Positions 22,244 to 43,163 of a stretch of 54,077 bases of DNA are shown here, one piece after another (positions within the stretch are counted from its first letter, which is position 1; each line of letters begins with the position of its first letter). The stretch is from an uncultured virus (IMG/VR IMGVR_UViG_3300038465_000034) (Duplodnaviria; Heunggongvirae; Uroviricota; Caudoviricetes). The stretch lies in the IMG/VR virus record IMGVR_UViG_3300038465_000034. The stretch is one strand, 5' to 3'. The translations under genes were made by a program, and so were the position numbers. The notes beneath the pieces were generated by a model. The model searched no databases and had not been told where the DNA came from. It saw nothing but the letters and a program-made list of their open reading frames with translations.

Positions 22244-22302
22244 ACCTATATGATACCACGAAAAAATAAATTTTGATTTCCTATCCAAAAAGTCAACTTC
22301 CA

Positions 22303-22322
22303 TGGTATTATGTAGAAGTAAG
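22303..22322 (+). promoter_or_regulatory. promoter of tRNA operon 1
   Basis: TGGTATTATGTAGAAGTAAG (extended -10); 19/20 identical to the operon 2 promoter at 43144-43163. Confidence 0.75.
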
Positions 22323-22330
22323 AGGAAAAC

Positions 22331-22453
22331 ATGACTTTGAAAAACGCCAATTCGAAGACCGCCGCACATAAAATGGTGAAGCGCCCGGTCAGATACCAGC
22401 GGAATAATCGCTGGTTCGGCGCAGGTCTGTTTTCTCAGGGTTGGGATGAGTAG
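22331..22453 (+). CDS. putative attenuator leader peptide of tRNA operon 1 (MTLKNANSKTAAHKMVKRPVRYQRNNRWFGAGLFSQGWDE)
   Basis: SD GAGG before ATG 22331 (second in-frame ATG 22373); K/R/Q/N/W/H codons match downstream tRNAs; overlaps alternative hairpins. Confidence 0.75.
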   Translation: MTLKNANSKTAAHKMVKRPVRYQRNNRWFGAGLFSQGWDE

Positions 22454-22481
22454 CTAGAAACCCACCGAACGAGATCAACAG

Positions 22482-22514
22482 ACCCACCGAAAAACGGTGG
22501 GTTTTTGCGTTTTT
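22482..22514 (+). terminator. attenuator terminator before tRNA-Trp
   Basis: ACCCACCG-AAAAA-CGGTGGGT-TTTTGCGTTTTT. Confidence 0.85.
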
Positions 22515-22526
22515 ATTGGAAAATAT

Positions 22527-22602
22527 AGGGGCGTAAGATAACGGCTAGTCGGTCGGTCTCCAAAACCGTACAGTGTGGGTTCGAATCCCTCCGCCCCTGC
22601 CA
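22527..22602 (+). tRNA. tRNA-Trp(CCA)
   Basis: AGGGGCG/CGCCCCT acceptor, CT-CCA-AA loop, TTCGAAT, encoded CCA. Confidence 0.9.
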
Positions 22603-22642
22603 AAATTTAAGTCGCATCGTGAAGCAAACCGATGTGCAGATT

Positions 22643-22722
22643 GTGGTCGTCGGTAGTGCTGGTATGTACCCGCAGCCTGTGAAGCTGTCGTATCGTGGGT
22701 TCAATTCCCACCGACCACCCCA
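22643..22722 (+). tRNA. tRNA-His(GTG), atypical D-arm, no encoded G-1
   Basis: GTGGTCG/CGACCAC, CT-GTG-AA, C73, CCA. Confidence 0.75.
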
Positions 22723-22796
22723 GTTTAGGGCGAGTTGGCCGTGAGTAAGACCAACTTTTAACACGTCAGAGGACGATGTGCCCCGTTTTTAGATGT

Positions 22797-22873
22797 GGTG
22801 ACTGTCGTTTAGGGGCTAAGACCTCTGACTGTGAATCAGATGATCGTCGGTTCGAATCCGACCAGTCACCCCA
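22797..22873 (+). tRNA. tRNA-His(GTG)
   Basis: G-1 + GTGACTG/CAGTCAC, TCTGA-CT-GTG-AA-TCAGA, C73, CCA. Confidence 0.9.
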
Positions 22874-22959
22874 AGTTTCGGCGGGGCGTTTCGGGTAGTA
22901 AAGCTGTAACCGACTCGTAAAGTCTGGCCCACTGCGAGGTCAGGCCCCAAAGTTTAGGC

Positions 22960-23220
22960 ATGAAGGAGTCAAGATTGAACAGCGGGGATGGAAACTCGCC
23001 CAGCGTGCAGCGGAGAACAGGGTCAGTCGCCCCCTCGGGGCTCGATTGGTCCGATGTGCACATCGAGTTTCCATCCTCAAATGGTAGAACTTTAGCGACG
23101 GTTGTTGGCAGTCCGCTAGACCACGACTGCCCAGTGTGTGAAATGCCGAAAGGCATGGCTTGCAAGTCAGCAACAACGCATTACAACCGCGTGAGGCTGA
23201 TTAGAGTTTTAGTCCCGTAA
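22960..23220 (+). CDS. small Zn-finger protein within tRNA array
   Basis: CPVC...C...H..R motif; stop codon lies inside tRNA-Arg(CCG). Confidence 0.5.
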   Translation: MKESRLNSGDGNSPSVQRRTGSVAPSGLDWSDVHIEFPSSNGRTLATVVGSPLDHDCPVCEMPKGMACKSATTHYNRVRLIRVLVP

Positions 23221-23287
23221 CTCAGCGGAATAGAGTACTCGCCTCCGAAGCGAAAAGTCGTGGGTTCGAATCCCACCGGGACTACCA
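23211..23287 (+). tRNA. tRNA-Arg(CCG)
   Basis: AGTCCCG/CGGGACT, CT-CCG-AA, TTCGAAT, CCA. Confidence 0.9.
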
Positions 23288-23339
23288 AGTAGAGGGCTGG
23301 TGCGCTCCCTCCATAACATGCGTACCAAATTTTAGATGT

Positions 23340-23414
23340 GCCTCTGTCGTTCAACGGACAGGATGCGAAGCTACGAACTTCACGATAGTGGTTCGATTCC
23401 ACTCGGGGGCACCA
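23340..23414 (+). tRNA. tRNA-Arg(ACG)
   Basis: GCCTCTG/CGGGGGC, CT-ACG-AA, TTCGATT, CCA. Confidence 0.88.
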
Positions 23415-23421
23415 AGGTTAG

Positions 23422-23512
23422 AAACGTCGAGGTCGGCTGTAGCTCAGCGGTAGAGCAGCCCGCAGGGGAAGGTCGGTGGTTCGAATCCACCCAGCCATAC
23501 GCCGAGACGTTT
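23422..23512 (+). ncRNA. anticodon-less tRNA-like RNA with extended closing stem
   Basis: Perfect D-arm (GCTC-AGCGGTA-GAGC) and T-arm (GGTGG-TTCGAAT-CCACC); anticodon arm reduced to CCC-GCAG-GGG; no CCA. Confidence 0.65.
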
Positions 23513-23578
23513 TTAGGGCAGAGGATAGACAGCGACGGCTGGAACGACGTGAAATCCCTCAAGCCCTCCGGATATTTT

Positions 23579-23654
23579 GGTCCCATCGTACAATGGAACA
23601 GGACACGTGGCTTCGAACCACGAAATGTAGGTTCAAGTCCTACTGGGACCACCA
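23579..23654 (+). tRNA. tRNA-Arg(TCG)
   Basis: GGTCCCA/TGGGACC, CGTGG-CT-TCG-AA-CCACG, CCA. Confidence 0.9.
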
Positions 23655-23661
23655 AAGTTTT

Positions 23662-23747
23662 GCAGGTGTGTCGGCAACGGACGCCACGGGCGCTACGAAC
23701 GCCTAGCCCTTCGGGGAATGCAGGTTCGAGTCCTGTCACTTGCTCCA
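23662..23747 (+). tRNA. tRNA with ACG anticodon and long variable arm (Arg?)
   Basis: GCAGGTG/CACTTGC, CT-ACG-AA, V-arm CCC-TTCG-GGG, U73, CCA. Confidence 0.75.
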
Positions 23748-23759
23748 GTTGGGGGTCGT

Positions 23760-24062
23760 ATGTATAAAGCGTCAAAGATGGTGTTACTTACGGGTCGCGA
23801 TGGGACTGTGCAGTACGGCCAGCCGCGCCACATACCGATGACTGGCTTTGGTGACTACGACATCGTTCCGACCGAAGAGGTTGAGCAGGACGAGGACCCG
23901 GCGGTAGTCGCGGCACGGCACGAGAGGACGATGGCGAAGATCGCCGAGCAGCTTAAGTTCGAAGAGGAATATCGGCTTGAGCGAGGAAGTAAGGCGGGTA
24001 CCACGGTCCACGAATCGGGTTGCCCCTGTGGGTTCTGCAAGGCGGGTTTTACGACAGCATAA
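23760..24062 (+). CDS. hypothetical protein (C-terminal H...CPCGFC)
   Basis: ORF between tRNAs with GGGGG SD. Confidence 0.55.
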   Translation: MYKASKMVLLTGRDGTVQYGQPRHIPMTGFGDYDIVPTEEVEQDEDPAVVAARHERTMAKIAEQLKFEEEYRLERGSKAGTTVHESGCPCGFCKAGFTTA

Positions 24063-24073
24063 ATTTTGAATTT

Positions 24074-24149
24074 AGGGCGTTAGTTCAGTTGGTAGAACGT
24101 CGGCCTCTGAAGCCGAATGTCGGTGGTTCAAACCCATCACGCCCTGCCA
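24074..24149 (+). tRNA. tRNA-Gln(CTG)
   Basis: AGGGCGT/ACGCCCT, TCGGC-CT-CTG-AA-GCCGA, G73, CCA. Confidence 0.85.
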
Positions 24150-24159
24150 AGTTTGATGT

Positions 24160-24237
24160 TCCAGTGTAGGACAATTGGTAGTCTGCTCGGCTGTTACCCG
24201 ATGTATGATGGGGGTTCGAGTCCCTCCGCTGGAGCCA
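24160..24237 (+). tRNA. tRNA-Asn(GTT)
   Basis: TCCAGTG/CGCTGGA, CT-GTT-AC, G73, CCA. Confidence 0.85.
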
Positions 24238-24249
24238 GTATTAAGTAGT

Positions 24250-24639
24250 ATGGGTGCTAACGATAAGAAAAAGCAACAGTTGGGAATGGCAATTGGCACG
24301 GCGAGTGCTCGATTGCGAAAGATGATCCTCTTTGGTTTGGTGCGGCGTTGTGGACTCGATACCTGTTTCCGCTGCGGGAAACAAATCGGTACTGTGGAAG
24401 AATTTTCCATCGAGCATAAGAAAGCTTGGCTCGATGTTTCGATAGACCTGTTCTGGGATTTGGATAACATTGCGTTTTCACACCTAGTATGTAATGTGGC
24501 TACCGCAAGAAAACCACATAAAAAGTATTTCACTGCCGCAGCGTTACGAGAAGCGACGAATAAACGAATCGCTGGTTATGGGCGTAAGGCGTACACGAAA
24601 GAACGACGACGGCAGAAATACTTAAGAACAGGTCATTAA
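24250..24639 (+). CDS. HNH-like endonuclease (paralog of 42225-42752)
   Basis: CFRCG...SIEHKK.W...NIAFSHLVCN. Confidence 0.75.
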   Translation: MGANDKKKQQLGMAIGTASARLRKMILFGLVRRCGLDTCFRCGKQIGTVEEFSIEHKKAWLDVSIDLFWDLDNIAFSHLVCNVATARKPHKKYFTAAALREATNKRIAGYGRKAYTKERRRQKYLRTGH

Positions 24640-24649
24640 GTTTTAATGT

Positions 24650-24724
24650 TCACTCGTAGCTCAGCGTTAGAGCGTTCGCCTGTTAAGCGAAGGGTCGCAG
24701 GTTAGAATCCTGCCGAGTGAGCCA
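24650..24724 (+). tRNA. tRNA-Asn(GTT)
   Basis: TCACTCG/CGAGTGA, TTCGC-CT-GTT-AA-GCGAA, variant T-loop TTAGAAT, CCA. Confidence 0.85.
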
Positions 24725-24975
24725 AGTTTGGATCAGGAGGTCGGCGGTCTCGTACGCAGTGGCAGGTCAGCCAATTAAGTCTCGACGTGGGGTTTGTCAG
24801 GGTCACCCATAAAGCGGTGCTCCTCATGAAGCGGGCAGGAATATCGTGATCGAGCAGGGTTTCGACGGCGACATGGTACGTGCAGCCGCATTCGAGGACG
24901 GTGTAGAAGCATTCCTCGTCGCCCTCGCGGGCCGTGTAGGCTCCAGCTTGCTTCGTACTAATGAATACTGAAGTT

Positions 24976-25053
24976 GAGCGGGTAATTCAACTGGACTAGA
25001 AGCCCAGCCTCTTAAGCTGGAGAATGTGGGTTCAAATCCCACCCTGCTCACCA
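24976..25053 (+). tRNA. tRNA-Lys(CTT)
   Basis: GAGCGGG/CCTGCTC, CCAGC-CT-CTT-AA-GCTGG, CCA. Confidence 0.88.
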
Positions 25054-25074
25054 AATTTTGTGGTATTATGAGCT

Positions 25075-25473
25075 ATGGATAGAAAGGCGCAAGGTGTAAA
25101 GTCGGTCGGCATCATTATGAGTCGGCTGATTGGGATGGGCAAAACCGTCCTGTTGCCAATTGGTGATTGTGAACGTTACGATTTGGTGGTCGATGAAGGC
25201 ACTAAGTTCGTGCGTATTCAGTGCAAGACTGGACGATTAGTCAAGGGCACCCTTCGCTTCAAAGCAGCGAGCACTAACCTTGAGCATGGGAAGTGGACGC
25301 AGAAGGATTATAGAGGACAGGCGGACGTGTTCGGTGTTTACTGTCGGGAGCTTGACAAAGTTTATCTTGTTCCTGTCTCTGAAGTTGGAAGGCGGGAAGG
25401 GTCCTTGAGGATCGAGCCCACTCGGACAACCAACAATGTTCGTTGGGCGAAAGATTTTGAAATGCGGGCGTAG
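25075..25473 (+). CDS. PD-(D/E)XK endonuclease (group I intron-associated/I-Ssp6803I-like family)
   Basis: P.GD.ERYDLVVD...RIQCKTG...Y...AD.F.VY......YLVP. Confidence 0.82.
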   Translation: MDRKAQGVKSVGIIMSRLIGMGKTVLLPIGDCERYDLVVDEGTKFVRIQCKTGRLVKGTLRFKAASTNLEHGKWTQKDYRGQADVFGVYCRELDKVYLVPVSEVGRREGSLRIEPTRTTNNVRWAKDFEMRA

Positions 25474-25539
25474 CTCAGTTGGTAGAGCACTCGCCTCTTA
25501 AGCGAAGGGTCGGCGGTTCGATCCCGTCCGCCCGCACCA
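25464..25539 (+). tRNA. tRNA-Lys(CTT)
   Basis: GCGGGCG/CGCCCGC, CT-CTT-AA, CCA. Confidence 0.92.
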
Positions 25540-25545
25540 AGTTTA

Positions 25546-25595
25546 GACGTACCGCAGGGCGTTTCACGTAGGTTCGAATCCTACCGCGCCGACCA
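25546..25595 (+). pseudogene. 3' half tRNA remnant (T-arm + acceptor strand + CCA)
   Basis: GTAGG-TTCGAAT-CCTAC-CGCGCCG-A-CCA with no matching 5' half. Confidence 0.55.
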
Positions 25596-25624
25596 AATTT
25601 TGAGTTTTGTGGTATTGTAAATAG

Positions 25625-26101
25625 ATGGACGCTTTAGACCATCTGTTGGATACTGGCGAATTGCATTGGACAGCCCAAGACATGGCGCTCGACGATTTTG
25701 TCGATAGCGACAATTGGTTCTTGAATCGGGACGATGTACCCGAACCGACTTTGAATGAGTTGAAGTTCCCGCTGACGGTGTATCGGGCGGTGAAGCTCAC
25801 GAACGGCATGGTAGACCTAAAGACCGAGGGGGTGGGGATTTACTGGACGTATAGCCCTCGGGTCGCGGAACATTGGATGTTCCCCACGAGGCCGGTGTGG
25901 ATACTTCGAGCAACAGCGGAGTACGATCAGGTAGATTGGGGGAAGACCCGAGACCTGAACACAAAGTTTGAAGTAGAACGAGAGATTAGGCTTCTGGCAG
26001 GAGCTAGGCTGCGGATCAATGCGTACAAGCGCAGACACAGCACAAGCTTCCTGACGTTCTCGGAAGATTGGGAACATGACGGACTGGAAGCAATAGCGTA
26101 A
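25625..26101 (+). CDS. putative ADP-ribosyltransferase-fold protein
   Basis: LTVYRAV...GIYWT.S..VA..W...E.EREI.L resembles the R-S-ExE ART arrangement. Confidence 0.5.
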   Translation: MDALDHLLDTGELHWTAQDMALDDFVDSDNWFLNRDDVPEPTLNELKFPLTVYRAVKLTNGMVDLKTEGVGIYWTYSPRVAEHWMFPTRPVWILRATAEYDQVDWGKTRDLNTKFEVEREIRLLAGARLRINAYKRRHSTSFLTFSEDWEHDGLEAIA

Positions 26102-26105
26102 GTTT

Positions 26106-26181
26106 GGATCGGTAGCTCAATTGGCAGAGCAACAGACTCTTAATCTGAAGGTTGTGGGTTCAATTCCCACCCGGTTCACCA
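26106..26181 (+). tRNA. tRNA-Lys(CTT)
   Basis: GGATCGG/CCGGTTC, CT-CTT-AA, CCA. Confidence 0.9.
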
Positions 26182-26187
26182 ATTTCT

Positions 26188-26388
26188 ATGCGTAGGACGT
26201 GCCCCAGTTGTCTCGGCGATGACGCGGCAAAGCGCGAAGGTCGGAACTTTGACCCGCTCTACGGCACCGTCGAAATCTACTGCACGTACTGTGGGTCCTT
26301 CGTGGACATGCTCTGGCGCTGGCAGACGAGCGACAGCGTGTGGCAGAAGTTCAGGGATCAAGCAAAGTTCGGGTTAGCTCAAGGTTAG
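26188..26388 (+). CDS. small Zn-ribbon protein
   Basis: CPSC...CTYC. Confidence 0.5.
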   Translation: MRRTCPSCLGDDAAKREGRNFDPLYGTVEIYCTYCGSFVDMLWRWQTSDSVWQKFRDQAKFGLAQG

Positions 26389-26444
26389 GCAGAGCAGCCG
26401 CGCAAGCGGAAGACTGGCGGGTTCGAATCCCACCCCCTAAACCA
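26368..26444 (+). ncRNA. anticodon-less tRNA-like RNA (GCAA tetraloop in place of the anticodon loop)
   Basis: GCTC...GAGC D-arm, CCGC-GCAA-GCGG, GGG-TTCGAAT-CCC, weak acceptor, ACCA. Confidence 0.6.
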
Positions 26445-26553
26445 TTACGGGTGTCAAGAATAGGGTGACAGACGGCACCAACCGTTGCGGGTTCAACGAC
26501 CGCCCCGTGATTTTGACTTTTAGAACGCTAGATAGAAGGGAATACAGTGATTT

Positions 26554-27144
26554 ATGCATGACACTCTCGTACTCGACATGAACTGGACGCCTGTAGGCTT
26601 CTGCACGTGGCAGAACGCCGTAAAGCTCATCTGGGAAGAGCGGGCTCACGTCGTCAAGGAAGACGAAGCGGGCAAGGTTTTAAGGTCGCCCTCGTTCTCC
26701 ATGGGGATGCCAAGGGTCATCGTGGTCCGTAACGCTTGGACAAAGCGCCGTCGCCAAGCTGTGCCTTTCAGCCGCCGCAACATTGCGGTAAGGGACAACA
26801 GTGAGTGCCAATACACGGGACGTTGGGAAAGGGATGGCGGGCCTCGTTACTGGGTGCCGTGTGGCGAAGTGCTGCAAACGCACCAGTACACGCTGGATCA
26901 CGTTACCCCACGTTCACAGGGCGGTGTGAGTTCTTGGACGAACCTCGTTCTCGCTTGCATTTACTGCAACAAGGCAAAGGCGGGTATGACGCCCAAGCAA
27001 GCTGGTATGCAACTTCGGCATAAGCCTGTTGAACCGAAGGTAAATGACCCGAAGTACAACTTCAAGCTCCACATTCGGAAGCTGCGTCCCGAATGGAAAG
27101 AGTGGACTAGCTGGCTGTACTGGAACGCGATTCTTGACGCATAG
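26554..27144 (+). CDS. HNH endonuclease (McrA-like/HNH_5 type)
   Basis: LVLD..W.P.....W..A...PRVI...FSRRNI..RD...CQY...TLDHV.PRSQGG.SSW.NLV.AC..CN..K...TP..AGM.L. Confidence 0.88.
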   Translation: MHDTLVLDMNWTPVGFCTWQNAVKLIWEERAHVVKEDEAGKVLRSPSFSMGMPRVIVVRNAWTKRRRQAVPFSRRNIAVRDNSECQYTGRWERDGGPRYWVPCGEVLQTHQYTLDHVTPRSQGGVSSWTNLVLACIYCNKAKAGMTPKQAGMQLRHKPVEPKVNDPKYNFKLHIRKLRPEWKEWTSWLYWNAILDA

Positions 27145-27269
27145 GACATTCCCGTACGGTAACATTCGAGTGTTATCGTGCGGGAAATCCTGAAATGTTA
27201 CCGAACGGGAATGATTGGATGCACGATAGGTTGCCTGAGAAGGAACGTTCCGTGCACAGGGTATAATTC

Positions 27270-27521
27270 ATGGCAGGTATACCGCATATCCGAGGCTGCT
27301 GGTTTTGTCTGCTGAATAAGTTGGTGGTGATCTTCGGCTTTGGTGCGATTGGGATTGTTTGCGTCTGTGCCATGGTCTGGGATGCGGCCCACCACCACTA
27401 CCTGACGGCGGGCAAGGATTTCGTTACCTACCTCATAGCTTTCATGGCTATCAGCGTGGTGCCGAAGCTGATAGATGGCTGGTCGGGGCTTCTGAACAGG
27501 GTGCTGCCTGATGGTAAGTGA
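27270..27521 (+). CDS. small membrane protein
   Basis: Two hydrophobic segments; TATAAT upstream. Confidence 0.5.
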   Translation: MAGIPHIRGCWFCLLNKLVVIFGFGAIGIVCVCAMVWDAAHHHYLTAGKDFVTYLIAFMAISVVPKLIDGWSGLLNRVLPDGK

Positions 27522-27702
27522 TCTTCAGGCACTATCGAAAGCATTAACAGAAGGTGCCGCTTGCTACGACAGGCAGGCGGACAAGGAATTGACCGACCTC
27601 ATCATGCGGGATCAAGTGAGGATCGAAGAAGAATTGAATCGAGACGGACAGACAATCGTCACGTTTCGTGGGTGTCCTTACAAGATAGCCCGAAAAGTTT
27701 GA
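27511..27702 (+). CDS. hypothetical protein
   Basis: Stop TGA overlaps the first bases of tRNA-Arg(CCT). Confidence 0.5.
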   Translation: MVSDLQALSKALTEGAACYDRQADKELTDLIMRDQVRIEEELNRDGQTIVTFRGCPYKIARKV

Positions 27703-27786
27703 CCTCGTAGTCTAGCGGACGAAGGCACCTGTTTCCTAAACAGGAGGCGAAAGCCATCGCAGGTTCGAATCCTGCCGAGGTCACCA
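27701..27786 (+). tRNA. tRNA-Arg(CCT) with long variable arm
   Basis: GACCTCG/CGAGGTC, CCTGT-TT-CCT-AA-ACAGG, V-arm GGC-GAAA-GCC, A73, CCA. Confidence 0.85.
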
Positions 27787-28353
27787 GTTTGTGGTTTTAG
27801 GATAACAATGTTCGATGTAAGCTTTAACGACGTGCTAGACGAATTTCTCGCTCAGTTGACGGGCGAGGACGGTATTAGGTTGCAGGAGGCTAAAGATGCC
27901 CGCAACAACGAGGACGTGGCGCTAAAAGAGATTGTAGTACCATGAAGCTGAGGGAATTCACCATCATCGCGTTGCCATTTCCTCAATCGGAGGCAACCTC
28001 GACGTACACGGAGTACGCGGTCGATGATGAGGCGGCTTTGAAACAGTTTCAAGCTCGATACCCGCTATGGCGGGTCAAGGAAGTAACGGAACGATGAATC
28101 GAACGTTAAAAAACGTTCTACTTGTCGGACTGACGCTAGTCGTCCCCGGTGCGGGGCTGGCATGGCTCATAAAAATCGCCAAAAGCGATCCTGACAAAGA
28201 TTTTAAGCGGTATGTTGAACATAGGTTCAACAAGATGAAAGCAGAAGAACAACCATGGCTCCAATGAACCTCAACCCGACCGCAACGCCGTGGCCTATCA
28301 CGGCAACGCCGATCCTCGTCGCCAGACGAAAACGCTAACCACAATTCGCGTGT

Positions 28354-28436
28354 GGGCGTTTAGTCGAGGCACTCCTCTAAAGTGTTATCCGTAAGCGGAA
28401 CTGAAAATGCAGGTTCGAATCCTGTAGCGCCCTCCA
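28354..28436 (+). ncRNA. aberrant tRNA-like RNA (no D-arm; TCT-containing loop)
   Basis: GGGCGTT/AGCGCCC acceptor, perfect T-arm, T-CCA end; internal hairpins GCACT-CCTCTAA-AGTGT and TCCG-TAAG-CGGA. Confidence 0.6.
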
Positions 28437-28442
28437 AATTTT

Positions 28443-28535
28443 CCCAGTGTAATTCAACGGAAAATCGCCGAAAGGTGAAGAAGCCCGGGCCTTTACCCCG
28501 GAGAATGGGGGTTCGAATCCCTCCAACTGGGACCA
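28443..28535 (+). tRNA. atypical tRNA-Lys(TTT)-like with hairpin inserted in the D-loop
   Basis: TCGCC-GAAA-GGTGA in D-loop; CCGGG-CCTTTAC-CCCGG; bulged acceptor; ACCA. Confidence 0.6.
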
Positions 28536-28536
28536 T

Positions 28537-28611
28537 GGGAGCGTAGCTTAATGGTAAAGCTACTGCCTTTTAAGCAGATAGATGGGGGTTCGACTCCCTC
28601 CGCTCCCACCA
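28537..28611 (+). tRNA. tRNA-Lys(TTT)
   Basis: GGGAGCG/CGCTCCC, CT-TTT-AA, CCA. Confidence 0.92.
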
Positions 28612-31477: not shown

Positions 31478-32419
31478 TTAGTCCTCCGCTCGGATTGCCA
31501 AATCGATCATGGCGAGCTTAACAACAGACTCGTCACGCCATTCTTCCCACGCTGGGTGCCCATCCGCTCGCTCGTCAGCCCGTAGGTGACCCGCAATCCA
31601 GCGGCAGGCAAGCTCAACCGCCCGAGCCAGAATGCGGTTGGTAGCGTCCCCCTCGTGTCCCCAAACTTTGAGGTAGAGTTTGGTCAAGTACCGCGAAACA
31701 GCCTCGCGATCAGTTTGATCGGGTAGGGAGGATTCTGCCTGTGCCCTATCCAGATCGGCAAACAAGGTGTCCGTCATATCCTTGAGGAATGCCTGATCGT
31801 ACTTGCCCTCTCGAACGGCAATCAGCAGGCTCTTGTTCGGACGCGGGTAGGTGATCTCACCAGCCTGCATGAGTTCAATTCCCTCGCCGAGGAGCCGCAT
31901 AACATGCATGGCAGCCTTGGTATCGAAGCCGAACTTCTCCTCAAGCTCGGGACGTTGACCGTGCTTGCCCTGCCCGCGTTCACCCATGTACCGCTGACGC
32001 TGGGCCATGGCAAATCCCCTGAATTGCTCCGCACACGCCTTGGATAGAAAAATTCTCCGCATGTTCCGTACATCGTCCCACAGATCAGTGACATCCAGCG
32101 TGTTCTCGGCGAAGAGGTACGACAGACAAGTCGGATTCCCGCCCGAGGCGAGCTTCGCCCACTTCCGCAGCGAGTAGAAGCAGATGTCCATGTCGCCGGG
32201 AACATTCCGCTTCGTATCGCCCGCAGACGACCACACGTAGTGGGGGTAGTCCTTGAGCCCGATGACCATCTCTGGCGGTTCGACGTAAACGCCATACCAG
32301 TCGTCATCGTGCTTGTTCACAAGTTGCGCCCCATGGAGATCGGACCCACCCCTGAACAGATGGATCAGGTTGCTGGTGTAAGGGAACTTGTTCGCCTTGA
32401 GTTGTTCAAGTAGGTCCAT
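31478..32419 (-). CDS. nucleotidyltransferase, DNA polymerase beta superfamily (RlaP/Nuc-transf-like)
   Basis: GGSDLHG...DDDWYGVY, D...YSLRKW..L...GNP...LF, FDTKAAMHVMRLL. Confidence 0.85.
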   Translation of the reverse strand: MDLLEQLKANKFPYTSNLIHLFRGGSDLHGAQLVNKHDDDWYGVYVEPPEMVIGLKDYPHYVWSSAGDTKRNVPGDMDICFYSLRKWAKLASGGNPTCLSYLFAENTLDVTDLWDDVRNMRRIFLSKACAEQFRGFAMAQRQRYMGERGQGKHGQRPELEEKFGFDTKAAMHVMRLLGEGIELMQAGEITYPRPNKSLLIAVREGKYDQAFLKDMTDTLFADLDRAQAESSLPDQTDREAVSRYLTKLYLKVWGHEGDATNRILARAVELACRWIAGHLRADERADGHPAWEEWRDESVVKLAMIDLAIRAED

Positions 32420-35296: not shown

Positions 35297-35479
35297 ACTT
35301 CCTCCTCTAACAGATAGTCCATCTTGCGGAGCAGTTCCTTTTGAATTGGGTTTAGGCACATCCCCGCCTTTTGACGGCTGATGGCGATAACTTCGTCATC
35401 GGTAAACAGGGGCTCGTTATCCCCCTGATAATCGTAGTACCCGAACGTCGGTCGTCCGCACTTGTTCAGCTTAGCCATT

Positions 35480-36079
35480 TTACTCCCAGTAGTTGCGATA
35501 ATCCGCACCAAATTTTTCGTTTAATTTTTTCAAGTACGAGTACGTTTTGATCTTCACCATGAAGTCGTCGCCCTTGGCAATCACACCCTCGACCACTGGG
35601 TACAACCCCATGCGGACATCCTCGATGAACTGACGATTCAAATTACCCCTGTAGATTACCTGAGCCGCGTAGGGCAGGTCGCCAAAGGTATCCAAGAACT
35701 GCTTGGGCGGCATGATGCCCCGCTTGAACAGCACCACGTCAAACAGCCGAAGCTCTTTCGGTTCCTTCTCGTCGTGTAAACCTGCAAAGCTGCTCGGTCC
35801 AAAGAACTCGGTGAATACGTTGATTCGCTGAACGCCGCGTTCGACCTTTTTGCACCGCTTGATGATCTCGTCTGCCATGGTGTCCATGAAGATCGGGATC
35901 GCCTGACCGAACAGCGGGTGAGTCGCGTCGAACATTTCATGCCGGGTGCCGAACTTGTGCCAGCCCTGTTTTGGCGACCACTCCCACCGAAGGTTGCTGC
36001 CGTCGTATTTATAGAATGCGATGCATGGGACCCCCAGAGGAGCCTTAGCCGCGCCTTCGATATGTGGGTATTGTTTCAT
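35480..36079 (-). CDS. RNA-ligase-like nucleotidyltransferase
   Basis: YP.I...KYDGSN (motif I), FTEFFG, LFDV, EGVIAK, VKIKT; no OB domain. Confidence 0.78.
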   Translation of the reverse strand: MKQYPHIEGAAKAPLGVPCIAFYKYDGSNLRWEWSPKQGWHKFGTRHEMFDATHPLFGQAIPIFMDTMADEIIKRCKKVERGVQRINVFTEFFGPSSFAGLHDEKEPKELRLFDVVLFKRGIMPPKQFLDTFGDLPYAAQVIYRGNLNRQFIEDVRMGLYPVVEGVIAKGDDFMVKIKTYSYLKKLNEKFGADYRNYWE

Positions 36080-36093
36080 TTGCCTCGGGAGAA

Positions 36094-36372
36094 TTAAGCA
36101 CCATTGATGAATTCGTCGAAAACGATGAACATGACTGACGGACCACGAACGGCATTTGTGGTATCGGGGCGATAGAACTTGCCTCGCACGGCCCCACTCC
36201 AATCCGTAATTTCTGGAATGTCCGTGGTGTCAATGCCTTCCTCTGCCAGAATTCGATCCCGCTTCTCAAGCGCCTTGATGATCGCCATATTGCGGGCGAT
36301 TAACTTGGTGTCGGGTCGTTTGCCCGATACTTGGCGGCGGTTACGCTTCGATACTCCGTGGTTTTTCGCCAT
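36094..36372 (-). CDS. protein containing a BrnA-antitoxin-like segment
   Basis: IDTTDIPEITDWSGAVRGKFYRP resembles the BrnA N-terminal/central region; C-terminal DNA-binding part absent. Confidence 0.5.
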   Translation of the reverse strand: MAKNHGVSKRNRRQVSGKRPDTKLIARNMAIIKALEKRDRILAEEGIDTTDIPEITDWSGAVRGKFYRPDTTNAVRGPSVMFIVFDEFINGA

Positions 36373-36741
36373 AAACCCCTATTTACTGGAACTTCCGTCA
36401 GCGGCGTAAAAAAACATATCATTTTTGCACACCGTGCATCTTGCCCGAGCGAGAGAACCGTCGCGGTCGTACTCGACATTGAGTTCGCTCTCATGGGCTT
36501 CGAACTCAGACAGGCATCCTCGGCAGGTCGCCGTCCAGAGCTTGTCACCTTTGTCGCCTTTTTTAACGAGTCGCATGGGTCCCCTCCGATCCTGATTGTA
36601 CCACAATGGGGTGCCTACGTTCGGCGGCTGCGATCTGTTTGAACAGTTTGAATTCTAATGAGGGCGGTTCCTTAGCCATGTCCCTATTCTACCGTAAAAA
36701 CTTGGATTTTGGCTAGGTTTTGAGGCTATGGAATCAACATG

Positions 36742-36936
36742 TTAGCCGATGGTCGCATCGACAACTATGTCTTTCTCGACGATTAGGAGGACACGAAGGG
36801 GGTCATAGTCTGGTTTATACACCAAGTGGGTTTGCACGACGCGGATATCGTACCCGTGCTCGGCGATATGCTTACGAGCATCATCTGTGGAAAGCCCCAC
36901 GAAAATTTTGGGGTCCTCAATGCGAATGATGGGCAT
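36742..36936 (-). CDS. peptidase inhibitor I78/potato-inhibitor-I-like protein
   Basis: FVGL....A.......IRVV......DY.P.RV.L.V....V.....G. Confidence 0.55.
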   Translation of the reverse strand: MPIIRIEDPKIFVGLSTDDARKHIAEHGYDIRVVQTHLVYKPDYDPLRVLLIVEKDIVVDATIG

Positions 36937-37030
36937 GAGTATTCCTCTACTGAAAGAATTCGGTAGCCAGCTTTATGCGTGGGCTGCCAGTGCCAATTTG
37001 TGGAATTTTTGATTCACACTGTCCATGTAA

Positions 37031-37360
37031 TCATTCAATCTGCTCAGGCGGTGTACCATCAACCAACCCCGCCAAAATCTGACCGTGACAAACCACCTTA
37101 CCTCTGAATCCATTTTTCTCTCGACACCAGCAGCCTAAAATTTTGTCCTTCAATTCAGACAGTCGGGCAATCAGGTGGGGTTGATTCTTGATCCACACCC
37201 GATACTTCTCTAATACAACTTTTCGGTTCCCATCAGGGCCGACATGGAAAGGATTTCCCCAGCCCTCATCTTTGAACTCAAGGTAGTCGCGTCCGATGTA
37301 GACGCAATTAGGCGCAAACTGGACGAAAGGAAACTTACGGACGTGGACAACTTGGGTCAC
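37031..37360 (-). CDS. DUF4326-family protein
   Basis: VVHV...VYIGR...WGNPF...R..V..KY..W...L.EL..K.LGCWC...CHG..L. Confidence 0.82.
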   Translation of the reverse strand: MTQVVHVRKFPFVQFAPNCVYIGRDYLEFKDEGWGNPFHVGPDGNRKVVLEKYRVWIKNQPHLIARLSELKDKILGCWCREKNGFRGKVVCHGQILAGLVDGTPPEQIE

Positions 37361-38736
37361 CGTTTGGCTAACTTTTCGAGGTCGGCGATCTCGCACATCT
37401 CACGGGTGGGGATACGAAACCCTCCCGGCGTGTCGATGGTGCCGTCCGCATTGGGCTCGATCCCGAACTTCTTCCAGTAGGCGGCGTCAGGAAACGGAAT
37501 CCAGTGAGCCATCATCTCTCGGATGATGCTGGGGTCAATCTTGGGACACTCGTCGCTCATCGCTTGTTTAATTCTCGGCTTCTTCGGCGCTTCTCCGCAG
37601 AGCGGGCCGATTCCTCCACGTCGAACTTGATCCCTAATTCCAATTGGTTTGCGTGGAAGTAATCGCCGATGGCTTCTTTCATCGTTCTTCCGCGACCGAC
37701 CGCTGGCGTCCCCGGACGCGAGAGATCATCCACTTCAAACTTACAGTACCTCTTGCTTATCGTCAACGTCATGATCTTTTGAAGTGGAGGCCGACCGTCG
37801 CCATTTCCACCATGTTCTTGTCGGTCAGCCGACCCTCTTCCGCCCGCTGCGTGAGGGCTGCACGACGCCACATCTTTTGAAACTGATGGGCAATGGTGTT
37901 GGTGAGGTTGAACTCGCGCTTGCGCTCCTGCCACGCCTCAAAGCCCTGATAACTTTTGGTCTTTGCATTCTTATTAGCCATGGTGCTCCTTATTGAATTG
38001 GGGGGAAAGTACGCCCCAACGATGATAGGGCGAGGTTTAGTAGGGCGTATGCCGCCGCGCACCACGCAATCGTACCTACGAGAAACGTCGATATCCAGCC
38101 CAAGATTGGGCGTTTATGCATGAAGTTGCGATACCATTCAGTTTCCTGAAGGGTCAAGCCGACGATAAACCCCAGCAGTACAACGGTGACGAAGACAAGC
38201 AAGAAATTTGTCACAGTAACCTCTTCACGAGGGCCGACTCTTTTTCGGTTAGCGCCCGTGCCAGAATCCTTTTCACAGCCCGATCCAGCCCGATGTAATC
38301 AAACCGTGCTCGGCGAGCATCTTCTACCGCGTTCAGTATCCTGCGGATACTTTCTTCATTCGGGCGTTCTCGAAGTTCGTTGAGCAACCGCATCACCTTG
38401 TCCTGCGGCTTGCGTGCTAATTGTGCTTTTACCATCCTGTGCTCATTTCTCCGCTGGTACCTGACAGTGGACGCGAACTTCTGTGTTTTTGTACCACGTC
38501 GGAATGCGGTGTAACGACTCTTTGTCGTAACAATTCTTGACGTAGACTTCGAACTCATCGTACCCCGTGTTGCCCCGAACGATATAGTTTTCTTGCACCT
38601 TAACCACGTTCGGGTCTTTCCGTAATTTCTTATCCAGCTTCCGACAATCACTAATGACGTTCCTAGCCGCGAACGCTGGCGTGATGAACAGTAGAACCAA
38701 TGCCGCTGCGAAATACGCTTTCATTGTTGCCTCCAG

Positions 38737-40008
38737 TTAGTGGGACCGTGGTGCGGATGTGGGTTGTGTAGCGAGCGGCTGATCGGGCTGCGCCCCCGTG
38801 CGCTGTAAAGACCACGTTCCGCTCCCCTTGCCACACGGAAGGAACGACGCACTCGTTTCAAACCAAGTGCCAGATATAGTGGAACCATCTGGGGATAGAG
38901 CACCTGTCAGAGTTGCCCCTTCTCCTCGGCATCCGCTGGGCGGCAGGTGTAAAGTGAAAGTGTTTCCCGTCTGAGCCCACGTACCCGCGTGTCCATTTCC
39001 ATCTCCCGCTCTGCTGAATGTTCCATTCGCGAGAAAGGTTACAGACATTGGTCCGCTATGACCTATTGTGCGAGTCATCTTGATGTTGAATAGTCCACCG
39101 TTCCCAGTCTGGAAGTCAATCTGCCCAGACCAAGACGTTGATGTCGGATCGAGATCAATCTGCGGTGGGGGAGCGACTTCCTGCTGCGGTTGATCTTGCG
39201 GTTGATCTTGCGCCTGATCTTGCGGTTGATCGGACGCGGACTCATCAACCACCGCACCGTTGTCACCAACGGAGAAGCCCACGGCAAAGTGCGAACAACC
39301 GAATTGCAGGGCGCTTAGTGACACGGAAACTCCCGGATACGTATTGTCGGACAGGTAGTAGCCACCGTTGGCGTCGTCTTCACTGACAGTCACGTCATCC
39401 GTTTCATTCCAGTTGTCAGCCCAAACGGAAGGCACCGGATCGACAATTGCGAAACCGAAGCCGCCGAAACTAAAACAGCCATGATTTGCGCCCATGACAA
39501 GATCAATACGGAATGGGTGGTCAACCCCAGCGAAGCTCTGGAAACGTCCGTTGGGGATGTGAAATCCTGCGTACCCGCCACGCTGAACCCAAGTGCGATG
39601 CTCCGCTGCAAAGTTGCTTGAACGCGGCATCACATCTCTGAGTGTTTTGACTGGTTTGATAGGGCCGTGATCGCCCACGATGTTTTGGCGAGTAATGGGA
39701 GCGTTTAGTCGCCGACCGACTTCGCCAACCTTCTGTGATGCTTCTCCTGCCCGCCTTACGTTCTGCACGGCTTCAGTAGCTCGTTTCACGTTCTGCGCGG
39801 CGTCCACGGCTCTTTTGGCGTTCTGTGCCGCATCCATGACTTGCTTTGCCTTTTGAGCGGCGTCGGCGACCTGCTTTGCCTTTTGGGCGGCGTCAAGAAC
39901 TTGCTTGGCTTTGTTTAATTTGTTCAACGTGTCAAGTGCGCCAAACTGCGCGAACGATAGACCGCTCATCAGAGCGAGCAAAACAACCAATATCGAAAAT
40001 CGCTTCAT
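38737..40008 (-). CDS. secreted multidomain protein with helical repeats and an Acidobacteriota-like domain
   Basis: Signal peptide; (DAAQKAKQV)n repeats; HRTW.QRGGY.G..IP..RF...W..NW...DDV...GYYL...YPG domain; QPQD repeats. Confidence 0.7.
   Translation of the reverse strand: MKRFSILVVLLALMSGLSFAQFGALDTLNKLNKAKQVLDAAQKAKQVADAAQKAKQVMDAAQNAKRAVDAAQNVKRATEAVQNVRRAGEASQKVGEVGRRLNAPITRQNIVGDHGPIKPVKTLRDVMPRSSNFAAEHRTWVQRGGYAGFHIPNGRFQSFAGVDHPFRIDLVMGANHGCFSFGGFGFAIVDPVPSVWADNWNETDDVTVSEDDANGGYYLSDNTYPGVSVSLSALQFGCSHFAVGFSVGDNGAVVDESASDQPQDQAQDQPQDQPQQEVAPPPQIDLDPTSTSWSGQIDFQTGNGGLFNIKMTRTIGHSGPMSVTFLANGTFSRAGDGNGHAGTWAQTGNTFTLHLPPSGCRGEGATLTGALSPDGSTISGTWFETSASFLPCGKGSGTWSLQRTGAQPDQPLATQPTSAPRSH
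39760..39915 (-). repeat. 30-bp (10-aa) degenerate coding tandem repeat
   Basis: AKQVLDAAQK/AKQVADAAQK/AKQVMDAAQN/AKRAVDAAQN/VKRATEAVQN. Confidence 0.7.
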
Positions 40009-41578
40009 TCTGTTCTCCTATTGTGTGAACTACTATATCACGAAATACGAACTAACGCTACTACAACGTATAACCTCATACTGCTCTCCAGAAATCCCAT
40101 TTGTGTTTCATGCGGTGCTTGTTTGGAAGGGTCGTCACTCGCCAAACCCAGTTGCGGAGACCGAAGAAACGATTTGGAACCAACCGATGTACTTGATCCA
40201 GTCTTAGCGGGATCGAAGGCACGTGGTTGTCTTTCAGGAACTCTTCTTGGACGCCCCAATCCACATATATTTCGCGGATGTGTTCTAATCTGCCGCGATA
40301 GGGCTCGGGAATCTCGGGACCCGGAATCCCGTTTTCGTAGAGGATTGTGCGGAACAAACTGCACGCTCCCCAGAAGCTATGGTAAGAACCTTCGTCAAAC
40401 GACCCGTCCGGGTGCTGTGCTTGGATGTCTTCCAGCAGGTAGGGGATCGCCCGCATTCCGAGTTGATTCTTGATGAACTGGTAGCTCGGATGGTCGGTCT
40501 TTGTCATGCTCAGGACGGCGGTGTCATCTGAGTATTGATCCATGTGCGCGTCGTACATCTCCCGAGTGGTTAACTGGTATGGTTTCTTCGGCTCGTCCGT
40601 GACGTTCGGCCAAAACCTTCCGTATTTTTCAAGCCATTCTGCGCTCGGGTCCATTAACTCCTCCAAATTTGAAACAAAGCATCTACCGTCAGTATAACAC
40701 CACTCGCCAATCCAGCCAAGCACCACGCCTTACCGCGAGGATCATACCTGCTGGCAGTCCTTATCAGACCACAGCTTCCCGCAGACCTTACAGCCCCCGC
40801 GTGACGGCTGAACACCCGTCAAATCCTCGGCCTTCACGATGTGCCAAGTCTGGATGCGGGCGGTCTCCTCGGTTCTCCACTCCTCCATCACAACCGAGCG
40901 GGCGATGCCCATGTTGGCCTTCTTGGTGATGAACCGATGCGGCACTTCGATGTCCACCGTCATCGTGACGCGGATGACCTTGCTCGGCCCAACGATCTTC
41001 GGGTGCTCGTCGGTCAGGTAGCAGCGATAGGGATCAAGTCCATACCGTCTCTCCAGCAGGTCGATGAGGAACCTCGGCAGCTTCACTTTTTCACCCTGAG
41101 GTCGTTCAAAGCTTGCTCCCGGGTTTTCGATATGAGCGCCACTTGCAGGTTTTCCTTGATGTGCTGTGGGCAGTATATAAAGCCCCGCTTCACTGGATAG
41201 TTGCATCGGATGGTGTGGGGCTCATACCTACAACGCTGCTTCGGCCTCACCCTGCCGATTAGCCGCCGTGTCAGCCGTTCCGCCGCACGTATTTGCTCGT
41301 ACAATGATCTCATACCCAAAACCCCGTGTCTCCGTCGTGCCTGTTGACGAACTCGTCCACTAGGTGCGACTTATCTACAATCCGCTTCGGTATGCGGCAG
41401 CGAAGCGTGGCCGCGAAATACTCGCCGCCGTAAACCCATCGGGCTCCCGGCGTATACGACGAGACCTCATCTTCGAACTCGAAGGTGGTGTATTTCTTGT
41501 CGTCGTCGAAATTGTGAATCACTATAGGATAATACCACGCGGCGGGAAAATATGGAAGAGGCTCACAAGTGCTAAATT

Positions 41579-41673
41579 TGGTGCCCCCACTAGGATTCGA
41601 ACCTAGATCGCACTCTAATCTAGAGTTAACTACGGCTTATAAGGCCGGGGTTTTGCCGTTAAACTACAGGGGC
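41579..41673 (-). tRNA. tRNA-Ile(TAT) with long variable arm
   Basis: GCCCCTG/TGGGGGC, CGGC-CT-TAT-AA-GCCG, V-arm ACTCT-AGATT-AGAGT, A73, CCA. Confidence 0.85.
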
Positions 41674-41682
41674 ATTAAAATT

Positions 41683-41768
41683 TGGTGCGGTAGGCGGGAT
41701 TCGAACCCGCAAGCCCGAAGGCAAGGCGTTTTAAGTGCCTCGTGTATGCCAATTCCAGCCACTACCGC
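41683..41768 (-). tRNA. tRNA-Leu(TAA)
   Basis: GCGGTAG/CTACCGC, CT-TAA-AA, V-arm GCC-TTCG-GGC, A73, CCA. Confidence 0.9.
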
Positions 41769-42070
41769 AAAATCCAATGAATCACGAAGTAAGCCGCTGT
41801 CAAAAATCCGCTGGCAATCAAGATACGGTTGCGGTACAGCCACAGGCGAATCGACTTGCTCGGTCGCCGCGTAGCGTACCTCGGGGCTTCACGCTTCTTG
41901 TATGCCGCGTACTTGCGGTACTCCTCTTCACTTTCCGCTTCTGTTGAGGGCGGGCACACGCTGCAAAATATCTTCGGGTACGGGGCAAATTTCCCCGTGC
42001 TCTCGTGTGTCTTCCAGTCAACGTGGATATGAGCAGTAGCGTCTTCGACGCATGGTTCGTAAGGCTTCAT
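41762..42070 (-). CDS. hypothetical protein with C-terminal TM, leaderless
   Basis: TATCAT-5 nt-ATG; stop lies in the tRNA-Leu acceptor stem. Confidence 0.5.
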   Translation of the reverse strand: MKPYEPCVEDATAHIHVDWKTHESTGKFAPYPKIFCSVCPPSTEAESEEEYRKYAAYKKREAPRYATRRPSKSIRLWLYRNRILIASGFLTAAYFVIHWILR

Positions 42071-42167
42071 ACCCTATGATACTACAAACTTTGATTTTCT
42101 GCTTCTCATATCCCTTGCGGGTCACGAGGCCAAACATCGGCACACATTAGGCACGTGAGATCAAATC

Positions 42168-42261
42168 TGGCGGTGAGCGGCAGAGTTGAACTGCCAATGC
42201 CCCATCTCTGAAGCATAGCCGTTTTCAAGACGGTCGGACTTGCCCATGTACCAAGCTCACC
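42168..42261 (-). tRNA. tRNA-Ser(TGA)
   Basis: GGTGAGC/GCTCACC, CT-TGA-AA, long V-arm, G73, CCA. Confidence 0.85.
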
Positions 42262-42752
42262 GAACTGGCGGTAGGAGGGAGAGTTGAACTCCCAATGCCC
42301 GTAGGCATAACTGTTTTCGAGACAGTCGGACTTGCCAATGTGCCAACCCTACCAAACTTTTTCTTACGCAATCCCTTTTGCCAACGCCATTCGTTGTTAT
42401 AAGCAACGTGAGCGTCTGTGCACGGCTTACAACGACAACCCAGAGTGTACAGGCCGTGTGTTCCATGCCTGCCAGTCTTTGGCGTCCTTCGAGCCGCCTT
42501 GTTGCACTTACGGTGCGAGTACGCAATGTTGTCTTCCGCCCAGAAAAGCTGCGGATCAACGTCGAGCCAATCCTTCTTGTGCTCAATGGAAAGCTCGCTG
42601 GCCTTCTCGATCAGTTTGCCGCATTTGAAACAAACGTTGTCGCCTAGCTTTACCAGCAGTCCGAAAAACAGGCGTTGCTTGAGGCGGTTACTCGCTGTGC
42701 CGAACGGCATTCCAAGTTGCTCGGCTTTCTTACAATTCGCATTAGTATCCAT
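42225..42752 (-). CDS. HNH-like endonuclease (paralog of 24250-24639)
   Basis: QLGM..GTAS.RL...CFKCG...SIEHKK.W...NIAYSHRKCN plus HGT...Y..GCRC..C module; frame continues through tRNA-Ser(CGA). Confidence 0.75.
   Translation of the reverse strand: MDTNANCKKAEQLGMPFGTASNRLKQRLFFGLLVKLGDNVCFKCGKLIEKASELSIEHKKDWLDVDPQLFWAEDNIAYSHRKCNKAARRTPKTGRHGTHGLYTLGCRCKPCTDAHVAYNNEWRWQKGLRKKKFGRVGTLASPTVSKTVMPTGIGSSTLPPTASSVSLVHGQVRPS
42266..42353 (-). tRNA. tRNA-Ser(CGA)
   Basis: GGTAGGG/TCCTACC, CT-CGA-AA, V-arm ATGCC-TAC-GGGCAT, G73, CCA. Confidence 0.88.
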
Positions 42753-42771
42753 GCGATTTAATACTCAAATT

Positions 42772-42863
42772 TGGCGGAGAGTAGAGGATTCGAACCTCTG
42801 ATCCCGCTTGCGCGGGATACACGCTTTCCAAGCGTGCGGCATAAACCACTCGCCCAACTCTCC
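42772..42863 (-). tRNA. tRNA-Ser(GGA)
   Basis: GGAGAGT/ACTCTCC, CACGC-TT-GGA-AA-GCGTG, long V-arm, G73, CCA. Confidence 0.92.
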
Positions 42864-42864
42864 A

Positions 42865-42958
42865 TGGCGGAGACGCCGAGATTCGAACTCGGACTCGGGG
42901 CTCTTAACCCCGAGGACAGGGTAGCAACCTGCTGCGATTCCAGTTACGCCACGTCTCC
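42865..42958 (-). tRNA. tRNA-Ser(GCT)
   Basis: GGAGACG/CGTCTCC, TT-GCT-AC, long V-arm, G73, CCA. Confidence 0.9.
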
Positions 42959-42970
42959 AAAATTTCGTAC

Positions 42971-43002
42971 AAAAACACAAACGCCGCCCTTGTTTGGCGG
43001 CG
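42971..43002 (-). terminator. attenuator terminator before tRNA-Ser(GCT)
   Basis: CGCCGCC-AAACAAG-GGCGGCG-TTTGTGTTTTT on the minus strand. Confidence 0.82.
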
Positions 43003-43036
43003 GCTCGGTGAATCTAATCTGCTTGTTTTCAGATAC

Positions 43037-43108
43037 TTACAAGCACACACCGATGCCGTCGCCCCGTGAGGAGCTACTCGATAACGATGATATGCTGATA
43101 GCGATCAT
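43037..43108 (-). CDS. putative Ser-rich attenuator leader peptide (MIAISISSLSSSSSRGDGIGVCL)
   Basis: 8 Ser codons in codons 5-14 plus ATA and TTA; 3' part is complementary to the terminator 5' arm. Confidence 0.8.
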   Translation of the reverse strand: MIAISISSLSSSSSRGDGIGVCL

Positions 43109-43143
43109 TTTGTGTGTCCGGTCTTACCTTGTTGCGGTAAATC

Positions 43144-43163
43144 CTTACTTCTATATAATACCA
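43144..43163 (-). promoter_or_regulatory. promoter of tRNA operon 2
   Basis: TGGTATTATATAGAAGTAAG, near-identical to 22303-22322. Confidence 0.75.

Follow-up and report, generated by a model that had tools for sequence, protein, structure and literature searches.

Why phages carry transfer RNA (tRNA) genes is a long-standing question, in which codon compensation is weighed against the replacement of host tRNAs destroyed during infection (PMC10264068, accessible text). The closest described control systems are the leader-peptide attenuators of amino-acid operons, such as trp, his, leu and pheA and the multivalent thr, ilvGMEDA and ilvBN leaders (PMC1183508, in the part available), and those of aminoacyl-tRNA synthetase genes, for example the His leader before hisS paralogues in bacilli (PMC2965389, accessible sections). 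A further relative is the L-array of the Anabaena trn operon, described in the available portion of PMC8421152 as a silent spare tRNA array that is induced when translation is impaired; TrcR is a repressor of a trn-type array (PMC10272220, accessible text). Within their accessible text, the stem 'attenuat' does not occur in PMC8421152, 'tRNA gene' does not occur in the attenuator survey PMC2965389, and PMC10264068, on phage tRNAs and host tRNA depletion, mentions neither attenuation nor leaders. Full-text literature searches, by title or abstract start and with subscription journals largely uncovered, returned no attenuation of tRNA genes. Here we analyse a 54,077-nucleotide (nt) stretch of DNA from an uncultured virus (IMG/VR record IMGVR_UViG_3300038465_000034), hereafter the window, which has two tRNA arrays, A and B, each laid out in the order promoter, short leader open reading frame (ORF), antiterminator, intrinsic terminator and tRNA genes (Table 1). 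Judged by sequence and structure modelling, this element is real and conserved, and built like a classical leader-peptide attenuator but placed before tRNA genes. We consider it likely that each array is under ribosome-mediated transcription attenuation, in negative feedback on the tRNA pool, and the phage probably raises a tRNA set only when ribosomes decode its codons slowly.

Codon-matched leaders before tRNA arrays

The amino-acid sets of the two arrays, called with ARAGORN, show zero overlap, and the codons of the leaders track this split, both as the first-pass annotation of the window had proposed. Leader B has Ser, Leu or Ile at 14 of its 22 codons (p = 5e-6) and set A amino acids at 1 of 22, while leader A has set A amino acids at 17 of 39 (p = 0.004), with all six represented, and set B amino acids at 4 of 39. 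The rare TTA and ATA codons of leader B are those read by the Leu-TAA and Ile-TAT tRNAs of array B. Leader A had been thought to start at position 22373. This ATG is an internal Met of a 40-codon ORF whose start, preceded by a Shine-Dalgarno sequence, is at 22331; orthologues retain the upstream start and not the internal ATG, and a His codon is present in the longer form only. The reading frame of leader A is kept in 13 of 13 aligned orthologues across nine different lengths, and its dense control block ends at Trp codon 28 (22412-22414).

Relatives' loci were gathered via two HNH markers, and other tRNA clusters of the related virus records were added. A composition-blind rule, which looked up to 700 nt away for the nearest terminator of -12 kcal/mol or below and then chose the longest ATG-initiated ORF of 15-50 codons that ended ahead of that terminator, was passed by 41 of 70 distinct array heads; three of the 41 (L010, L022 and L053) come from a distant set and were added by hand after their leaders had been seen. 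For these 41 leaders, whose rows are kin, the mean z of the leader-to-array codon match is 3.16, as against 0.43 ± 0.29 for shuffled pairings (0 of 20,000 permutations). Every amino acid of the array is present in 36 of the 41 leaders, and the own class gives the best score in 34. Without the three hand-added rows, z is 3.24 against 0.46, with 34 of 38 leaders complete. The 29 heads that failed the rule comprise 18 distal sub-clusters or contig fragments, two amber-tRNA arrays and nine true heads, five of which (L092, L172, L175, L176 and L193) have, by eye, a matched leader and a terminator-like hairpin. Changes within lineages are followed as well: where Pro/Met/Phe tRNAs have joined array A, or Tyr/Leu tRNAs the Ser array, those codons are found in the leader, and where arrays have fused (some of those in G001, G003, G005 and G006) the leaders hold the union of codons.

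Two near-complete relatives, G002 and G008 (456 and 463 kb), each possess six sense-tRNA arrays that together cover all 20 amino acids: Trp/His/Arg/Gln/Asn/Lys; Ser with Leu-TAA; Tyr/Leu; Val/Gly/Ala/Asp/Cys/Glu; Ile/Thr/Gln; and Pro/Met/Phe. Other tRNA clusters had been predicted to carry their own matched leaders, and this is what was found at six of six arrays in each of these two relatives, a count made by inspection, in which several leaders were recognised by eye, and at four of four in a third. The central idea of the first-pass annotation, a modular tRNA-on-demand system of array-specific, codon-matched leaders, thus holds. As a side observation, the Ser/Leu and Tyr/Leu sets are mostly tRNAs with a long variable arm, and the Val/Gly/Ala/Asp/Cys/Glu set corresponds to the codons that begin with G, with Cys added. 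The amber (CTA) tRNA cluster of G008 and G002 lies near an upstream gene with a conserved in-frame TAG close to its start (L195 ~2692-2360 and L196 from 2881, both on the minus strand), which has a weak PHROGs match to 'hydrolase', presumably resembles peptidyl-tRNA hydrolases, and, going by its sequence, may be made only through amber read-through.

Predicted switch and shared promoters

In both window leaders the antiterminator strand sits in the last third of the leader ORF, and the antiterminator is predicted to be more stable than the terminator: -24.1 kcal/mol (z -2.1) versus -18.6 kcal/mol (z -4.8) for A, and -32.0 kcal/mol (z -4.7; 0 of 200 shuffles) versus -17.4 kcal/mol (z -2.2) for B. 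The untranslated fold of leader A also contains 5' pairing and a predicted hairpin at ~22395-22415, a candidate polymerase pause hairpin for coupling ribosome and polymerase. Over the leader regions, no Rfam family apart from tRNA scored at or above its cut-off, and a T-box riboswitch was rejected, with no match at the gathering score or at E values up to 1. In a switch model, a ribosome mask was shifted codon by codon and the pairing of the terminator 5' arm with upstream RNA was computed. The modelled pairing is high over the control block, and in 29 of the 41 leaders it falls no more than three codons from where the block ends; 473 control codons lie before the switch and 139 after it, compared with 324 and 342 other codons. 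In leader B, the modelled terminator probability goes to about zero when the ribosome occupies the TTA codon or any of the three Ser codons after it. The best partner of leader tails is their own terminator arm (-16.7 versus -11.9 ± 0.4 kcal/mol for those of others; 0 of 20,000), and upstream partners are stronger at terminators near tRNAs than at those far from them (-20.0 versus -13.9; 21 versus 29 sites, p = 3e-5). Chance, by which short biased ORFs and hairpins would arise anywhere, has in its favour that a short ATG ORF also precedes 14 of the 29 terminators located far from tRNAs, but it is contradicted by the permutation, frame and duplex tests and by the synonymous-codon test given below, and we regard it as scarcely credible.

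The two arrays also share a block that, by its consensus elements, is a 30-nt sigma70-type promoter. The 20-mer pair from which this likeness was first noticed (22303-22322 on the plus strand, 43163-43144 on the minus strand) gives the sole two matches in the window even at three mismatches, and none of 100 shuffles gave any; the likeness reaches further upstream, with 27 of 30 bases identical (22293-22322 versus 43173-43144; 0 of 5000 shuffles). Nine bases of the 20-mer make up a general extended -10 core, which has 15 window matches at one mismatch versus 4.3 expected and also precedes protein genes, e.g. those for ligase and rIIA. Without the core, the flanks of A and B are identical at 18 of 23 positions, the runner-up among 190 pairs of 20 candidate promoters reaching 13 of 23. 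Both window matches to the spacer box are at the leaders, and in five whole records leader promoters account for 6 of 14 matches, so the box is enriched but not exclusive; neither core nor box was retained as exclusive to tRNA arrays. Canonical -35/-10 matches of the TTGACA type head tRNA arrays in five of seven cases in G002 (12 pattern matches overall) and in none of three in G005, and no exact match to the 20-mer was found in viral_contigs. A second motif, AAGACCG..CACA(T/C)AAAATG, had been put forward as a common start context. It does not serve as one: it lies inside the coding region of leader A but in the 5' untranslated region of leader B, is out of register with the promoter (33 nt downstream in A versus 19 nt in B), and is matched by 49 of 5000 shuffles, marginally above chance. 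Likeness of the A and B terminator regions is attained by 174 of 5000 shuffles. The spacer box also occurs in the promoter of a permuted, two-piece gene resembling transfer-messenger RNA, noticed by eye in G008 (L195 ~5190-4900, minus strand).

Control could instead be exerted at this shared promoter by a repressor or activator on the spacer box, as in the Anabaena trn operon, with the ORFs being small proteins or relics and the terminator constitutive or leaky. The shared box at both window leaders is in keeping with this, and repressor-type control of a tRNA array has been published (PMC8421152, accessible text); yet it leaves the codon match, the frame conservation and the own-arm pairing unexplained, and the leader promoters make up only the 6 of 14 box matches noted above. 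We regard such control as highly improbable in place of attenuation, and it may act in addition to it.

For arrays of different classes, upstream regions resemble each other more closely if both come from one genome than if they come from two (40 versus 297 pairs, p = 2e-7), and in G004 two array promoters are identical at 113 of 115 bases; on these two grounds we take promoter copying to be real. Leader tails recur across classes too, and the sequences indicate that promoters and leader tails are exchanged between arrays. The leader classes are old, each having its own orthologues across the family, and homology of the leader A and B ORFs was rejected since they do not align, which argues against recent duplication and re-tuning in the window phage. 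Of the duplicated, re-tuned cassette of the first-pass annotation, promoter copying between arrays is supported, and a recent duplication in this phage is not.

Array A also holds atypical tRNA-like elements, and HNH, PD-(D/E)XK and other ORFs are interspersed among its tRNAs. In three tRNA-like genes on the plus strand (23433-23499, 26370-26445 and 28354-28433) the anticodon arm is reduced to a short stem with a loop of 3-4 nt; two of the three have Rfam tRNA matches, and relatives' arrays hold similar uncallable tRNAs. These genes are possibly decoys for tRNA nucleases. Another tRNA-like gene (28442-28535, plus strand), whose D arm is enlarged and whose anticodon is TTT, was overlooked by ARAGORN and Rfam and would add a further Lys tRNA, consistent with set A.

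Table 1 Features of the two tRNA arrays and their leaders in the window.
Feature	Position	Strand	Details
Promoter A	22293..22322	+	Spacer box; extended -10 at 22303-22311; probable transcription start ~22318; putative function from consensus
Shine-Dalgarno of leader A	22320..22326	+	Read from sequence; 4-5 nt ahead of ATG 22331
Leader A ORF	22331..22453	+	40 codons; control codons Lys/Asn/His/Arg/Gln/Trp
Antiterminator 5' strand A	22424..22436	+	Inside leader A; predicted to pair with 22471-22484, overlapping terminator 5' arm
Intrinsic terminator A	22480..22514	+	Predicted stem 22480-22504 plus U tract; end ~12 nt ahead of tRNA-Trp
tRNA array A	22527..28611	+	15 ARAGORN tRNAs: Trp, His x2, Arg x5, Gln-CTG, Asn x2, Lys x4
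Internal extended -10	25061..25069	+	Before PD-(D/E)XK gene; second one at 25610
HNH gene in array A	26554..27144	+	Marker for finding relatives
tRNA array B	41579..42958	-	6 tRNAs: Ser GCT, GGA, CGA, TGA; Leu TAA; Ile TAT; one HNH gene inside
Intrinsic terminator B	42970..43002	-	Predicted stem 43002-42982 plus U-rich tract
Leader B ORF	43037..43108	-	23 codons; first 14 include 8 Ser (5 different codons), Leu TTA, Ile ATA
Antiterminator 5' strand B	43048..43063	-	In leader B; predicted to pair with 43010-42996, overlapping terminator 5' arm
Promoter B	43144..43173	-	Spacer box; extended -10 at 43163-43155

What the leaders may sense

We propose that host RNA polymerase would start at the sigma70-type extended -10 promoter, a type copied between arrays and presumed active, and that a ribosome would translate the leader behind it, as the ORF and its frame conservation suggest. 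With fast decoding, the ribosome would clear the control block and cover the antiterminator strand in the last third of the leader, the terminator would fold, and the transcript would, going by predicted structures, end 10-25 nt before the first tRNA. With cognate aminoacyl-tRNA scarce, the ribosome would wait in the control block and the freed strand could pair with the terminator 5' arm; the array would then be transcribed, tRNAs reading those codons would be supplied, and the switch would close again.

This raises the question of whether the signal is the tRNA or the amino acid. At control amino acids, the leaders use 368 distinct synonymous codons in 139 groups versus 334.6 ± 6.6 if all synonyms were used equally (0 of 5000), and no such excess is seen at their non-control residues (381 versus 385.4 expected); for a set of 11 leaders, one or two per class, the count is 110 versus 98.5 (5 of 5000). 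Class A leaders contain the Gln codon CAG 38 times and CAA once, matching tRNA-Gln-CTG, and favour the wobble-read CAT and AAT, contrary to the phage's own usage. Class B leaders contain ATA in six of six cases and TTA in five of six, the sixth array lacking a Leu tRNA. Their codon content suggests that the leaders are designed to sample tRNA species and not amino acids. Because they sample different synonymous codons, the trigger would most likely be loss of tRNA species (through cleavage, decay or loss of modification in infection) rather than amino-acid starvation.

A reading that we consider unlikely keeps the same attenuator and takes amino-acid starvation as the signal, like the thr, ilv or his leaders, the phage raising tRNAs in order to capture scarce amino acids by selective charging. 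The members of set A (Trp, His, Arg, Gln, Asn and Lys) are the only six amino acids whose side chains contain nitrogen, Ser and Thr codons form runs, and the pairing of Ile with Thr brings the thr leader to mind. Moreover, an attenuator alone cannot tell uncharged from missing tRNA and reacts to any drop in charged tRNA (PMC1183508, in the part available), so that starvation would trip the switch too. Starvation sensing is harder to reconcile with the over-sampling of synonymous codons at control positions and with the division of Leu, Ile and Gln isoacceptors between arrays, where the leaders follow the isoacceptor; the output, being tRNA, would also bring no relief of an amino-acid shortage.

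Arrays in Acidobacteriota genome bins bear on a different possibility. Six of the 11 loci extend to the array head, and all six heads have a leader of ~43-44 codons with most amino acids, and a terminator. In L201 (5600-6050), L204 (6410-6850) and L206 (75-720), all on the plus strand, leader and terminator occur in tandem duplicate behind a promoter-proximal tRNA-Thr. L205 has a separate Leu/Tyr/Ser leader ahead of its Leu/Tyr/Ser block, and the gene content around L202, with RtcB and a PRTRC ThiF gene, suggests an island. The use, in these related arrays, of one leader with nearly all amino acids, together with the single geometry common to all leaders, would fit a general translation-speed or timing switch, in which any ribosome slowing or uncoupling of transcription from translation opens all arrays and the codon match is historical tuning. 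As six distinct leader classes are kept, matched to their arrays and re-matched upon array fusion, we judge a general switch improbable. Returning to the loss of tRNA species as signal, a more ambitious possibility, which we put forward tentatively and hold somewhat short of even, is that the leaders work together as a bank of six sensor channels, monitor decoding speed across the entire genetic code and induce only the tRNA group removed by a host anticodon nuclease or decay, i.e. a target-selective counter-defence; a single-channel, sometimes tandem, version would control the spare Acidobacteriota arrays.

Several observations weigh against attenuation by codon-matched leaders. In the equilibrium model, terminator A stays 0.6-0.9+ formed at all ribosome positions, so switching in leader A would need co-transcriptional trapping. 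The class A antiterminator core is invariant in 13 orthologues, with 79% of cells paired, no compensatory changes and a level not above shuffles, and the distance from switch to stop codon does not follow that from the end of the control block to the stop codon (rho 0.12). The permutation p-values overstate independence because the rows are kin, leaders are poorly told apart by Pro, Met or Phe alone, scored as present or absent, and synonymous sampling in the window alone is not significant (17 vs 17.2). Individual arrays also deviate: the Pro/Met/Phe arrays in L177 and L182 have a matched leader without a U-tract terminator, the class A leader L091 is matched but a tandem repeat replaces its terminator, the class B leader L188 no longer has a start codon, and the amber-tRNA arrays yielded no leader. 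In the distant-phage set, most arrays lack the leader element: 8 of 46 heads pass the rule, and four have clearly matched leaders. Finally, the putative internal promoters at 25061 and 25610 may allow the distal tRNAs of array A to bypass the attenuator. The Pro/Met/Phe leaders (L182 8942-9125 and L177 8696-8960, plus strand) are of separate interest, as in L182 the sequence after the stop codon seems to be the complement of the tRNA-Pro 5' strand, a hint that control may lie in how the first tRNA folds or is processed.

Phage setting and relation to known systems

The genes of the window, which include rIIA, rIIB, RNA ligase, nucleotidyltransferase, NAD-dependent DNA ligase, Ku and HNH genes, identify it as phage DNA, and cultured phages are only distantly related (ligase ~30% identity). 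Near-complete virus records of 317-463 kb are among the relatives found via the array A HNH gene, and all 11 cellular-genome matches to that gene are in Acidobacteriota bins; on both grounds, the window is probably part of a jumbo phage of Acidobacteriota. As a single query the array B HNH protein yielded no relatives, and a protein atlas search with ORF 38737-40008 gave no usable host or family. HNH paralogues (phrog_23251) lie in both arrays (24250-24639, plus strand; 42752-42360, minus strand), and the close association of this family with tRNA arrays extends to other phages. Near the arrays, the minus strand encodes an RNA repair and translation-support kit of RlaP-type nucleotidyltransferase (31478-32419), RNA ligase (35480-36202), ADP-ribosylglycohydrolase (15341-16369) and methionine aminopeptidase (18216-19112).

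A switch in the phage's own DNA that is on when codons are read slowly would argue for conditional tRNA replacement as a reason for carrying tRNAs, an idea that a 200-nt reporter makes directly testable. With it, attenuation would reach beyond enzyme genes to those for tRNAs, in the form of a feedback loop. The leaders could offer natural, class-specific in vivo sensors of tRNA damage, and their classes hint at which tRNA groups are attacked by host defences.

Compared with known systems, the element resembles T-box riboswitches in that termination or antitermination would report tRNA charging, but a T-box binds tRNA directly, without a translated leader. It shares with the trn L-array the presence of HNH and RtcB genes nearby, RtcB being inside the array in Acidobacteriota, whereas the L-array, as far as its accessible descriptions go, uses a repressor and promoter repeats, the latter being 9-nt direct repeats in tandem across the -10 box and start site, with one signal for the whole array. 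Leader-peptide feedback on the supply of charged tRNA would be common to the phage element and to the synthetase attenuators of hisS and of pheST, the leader-attenuated synthetase genes of E. coli, but those raise the charging enzyme of one amino acid and not tRNA genes. The likeness to amino-acid operon attenuators comprises a leader ORF with control codons, a control block ending just ahead of the antiterminator strand, an antiterminator overlapping the 3' part of the leader, and an intrinsic terminator. The element is nonetheless not a strict member of that group, whose downstream genes make, import or charge the sensed amino acid: the genes downstream of the phage leaders are tRNAs with HNH and PD-(D/E)XK ORFs. 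Unlike amino-acid operon attenuators, it would gate tRNAs, with up to nine amino acids per leader and synonymous codons sampled, in parallel arrays that cover all 20 amino acids and with an output that would replenish the sensed molecule itself.

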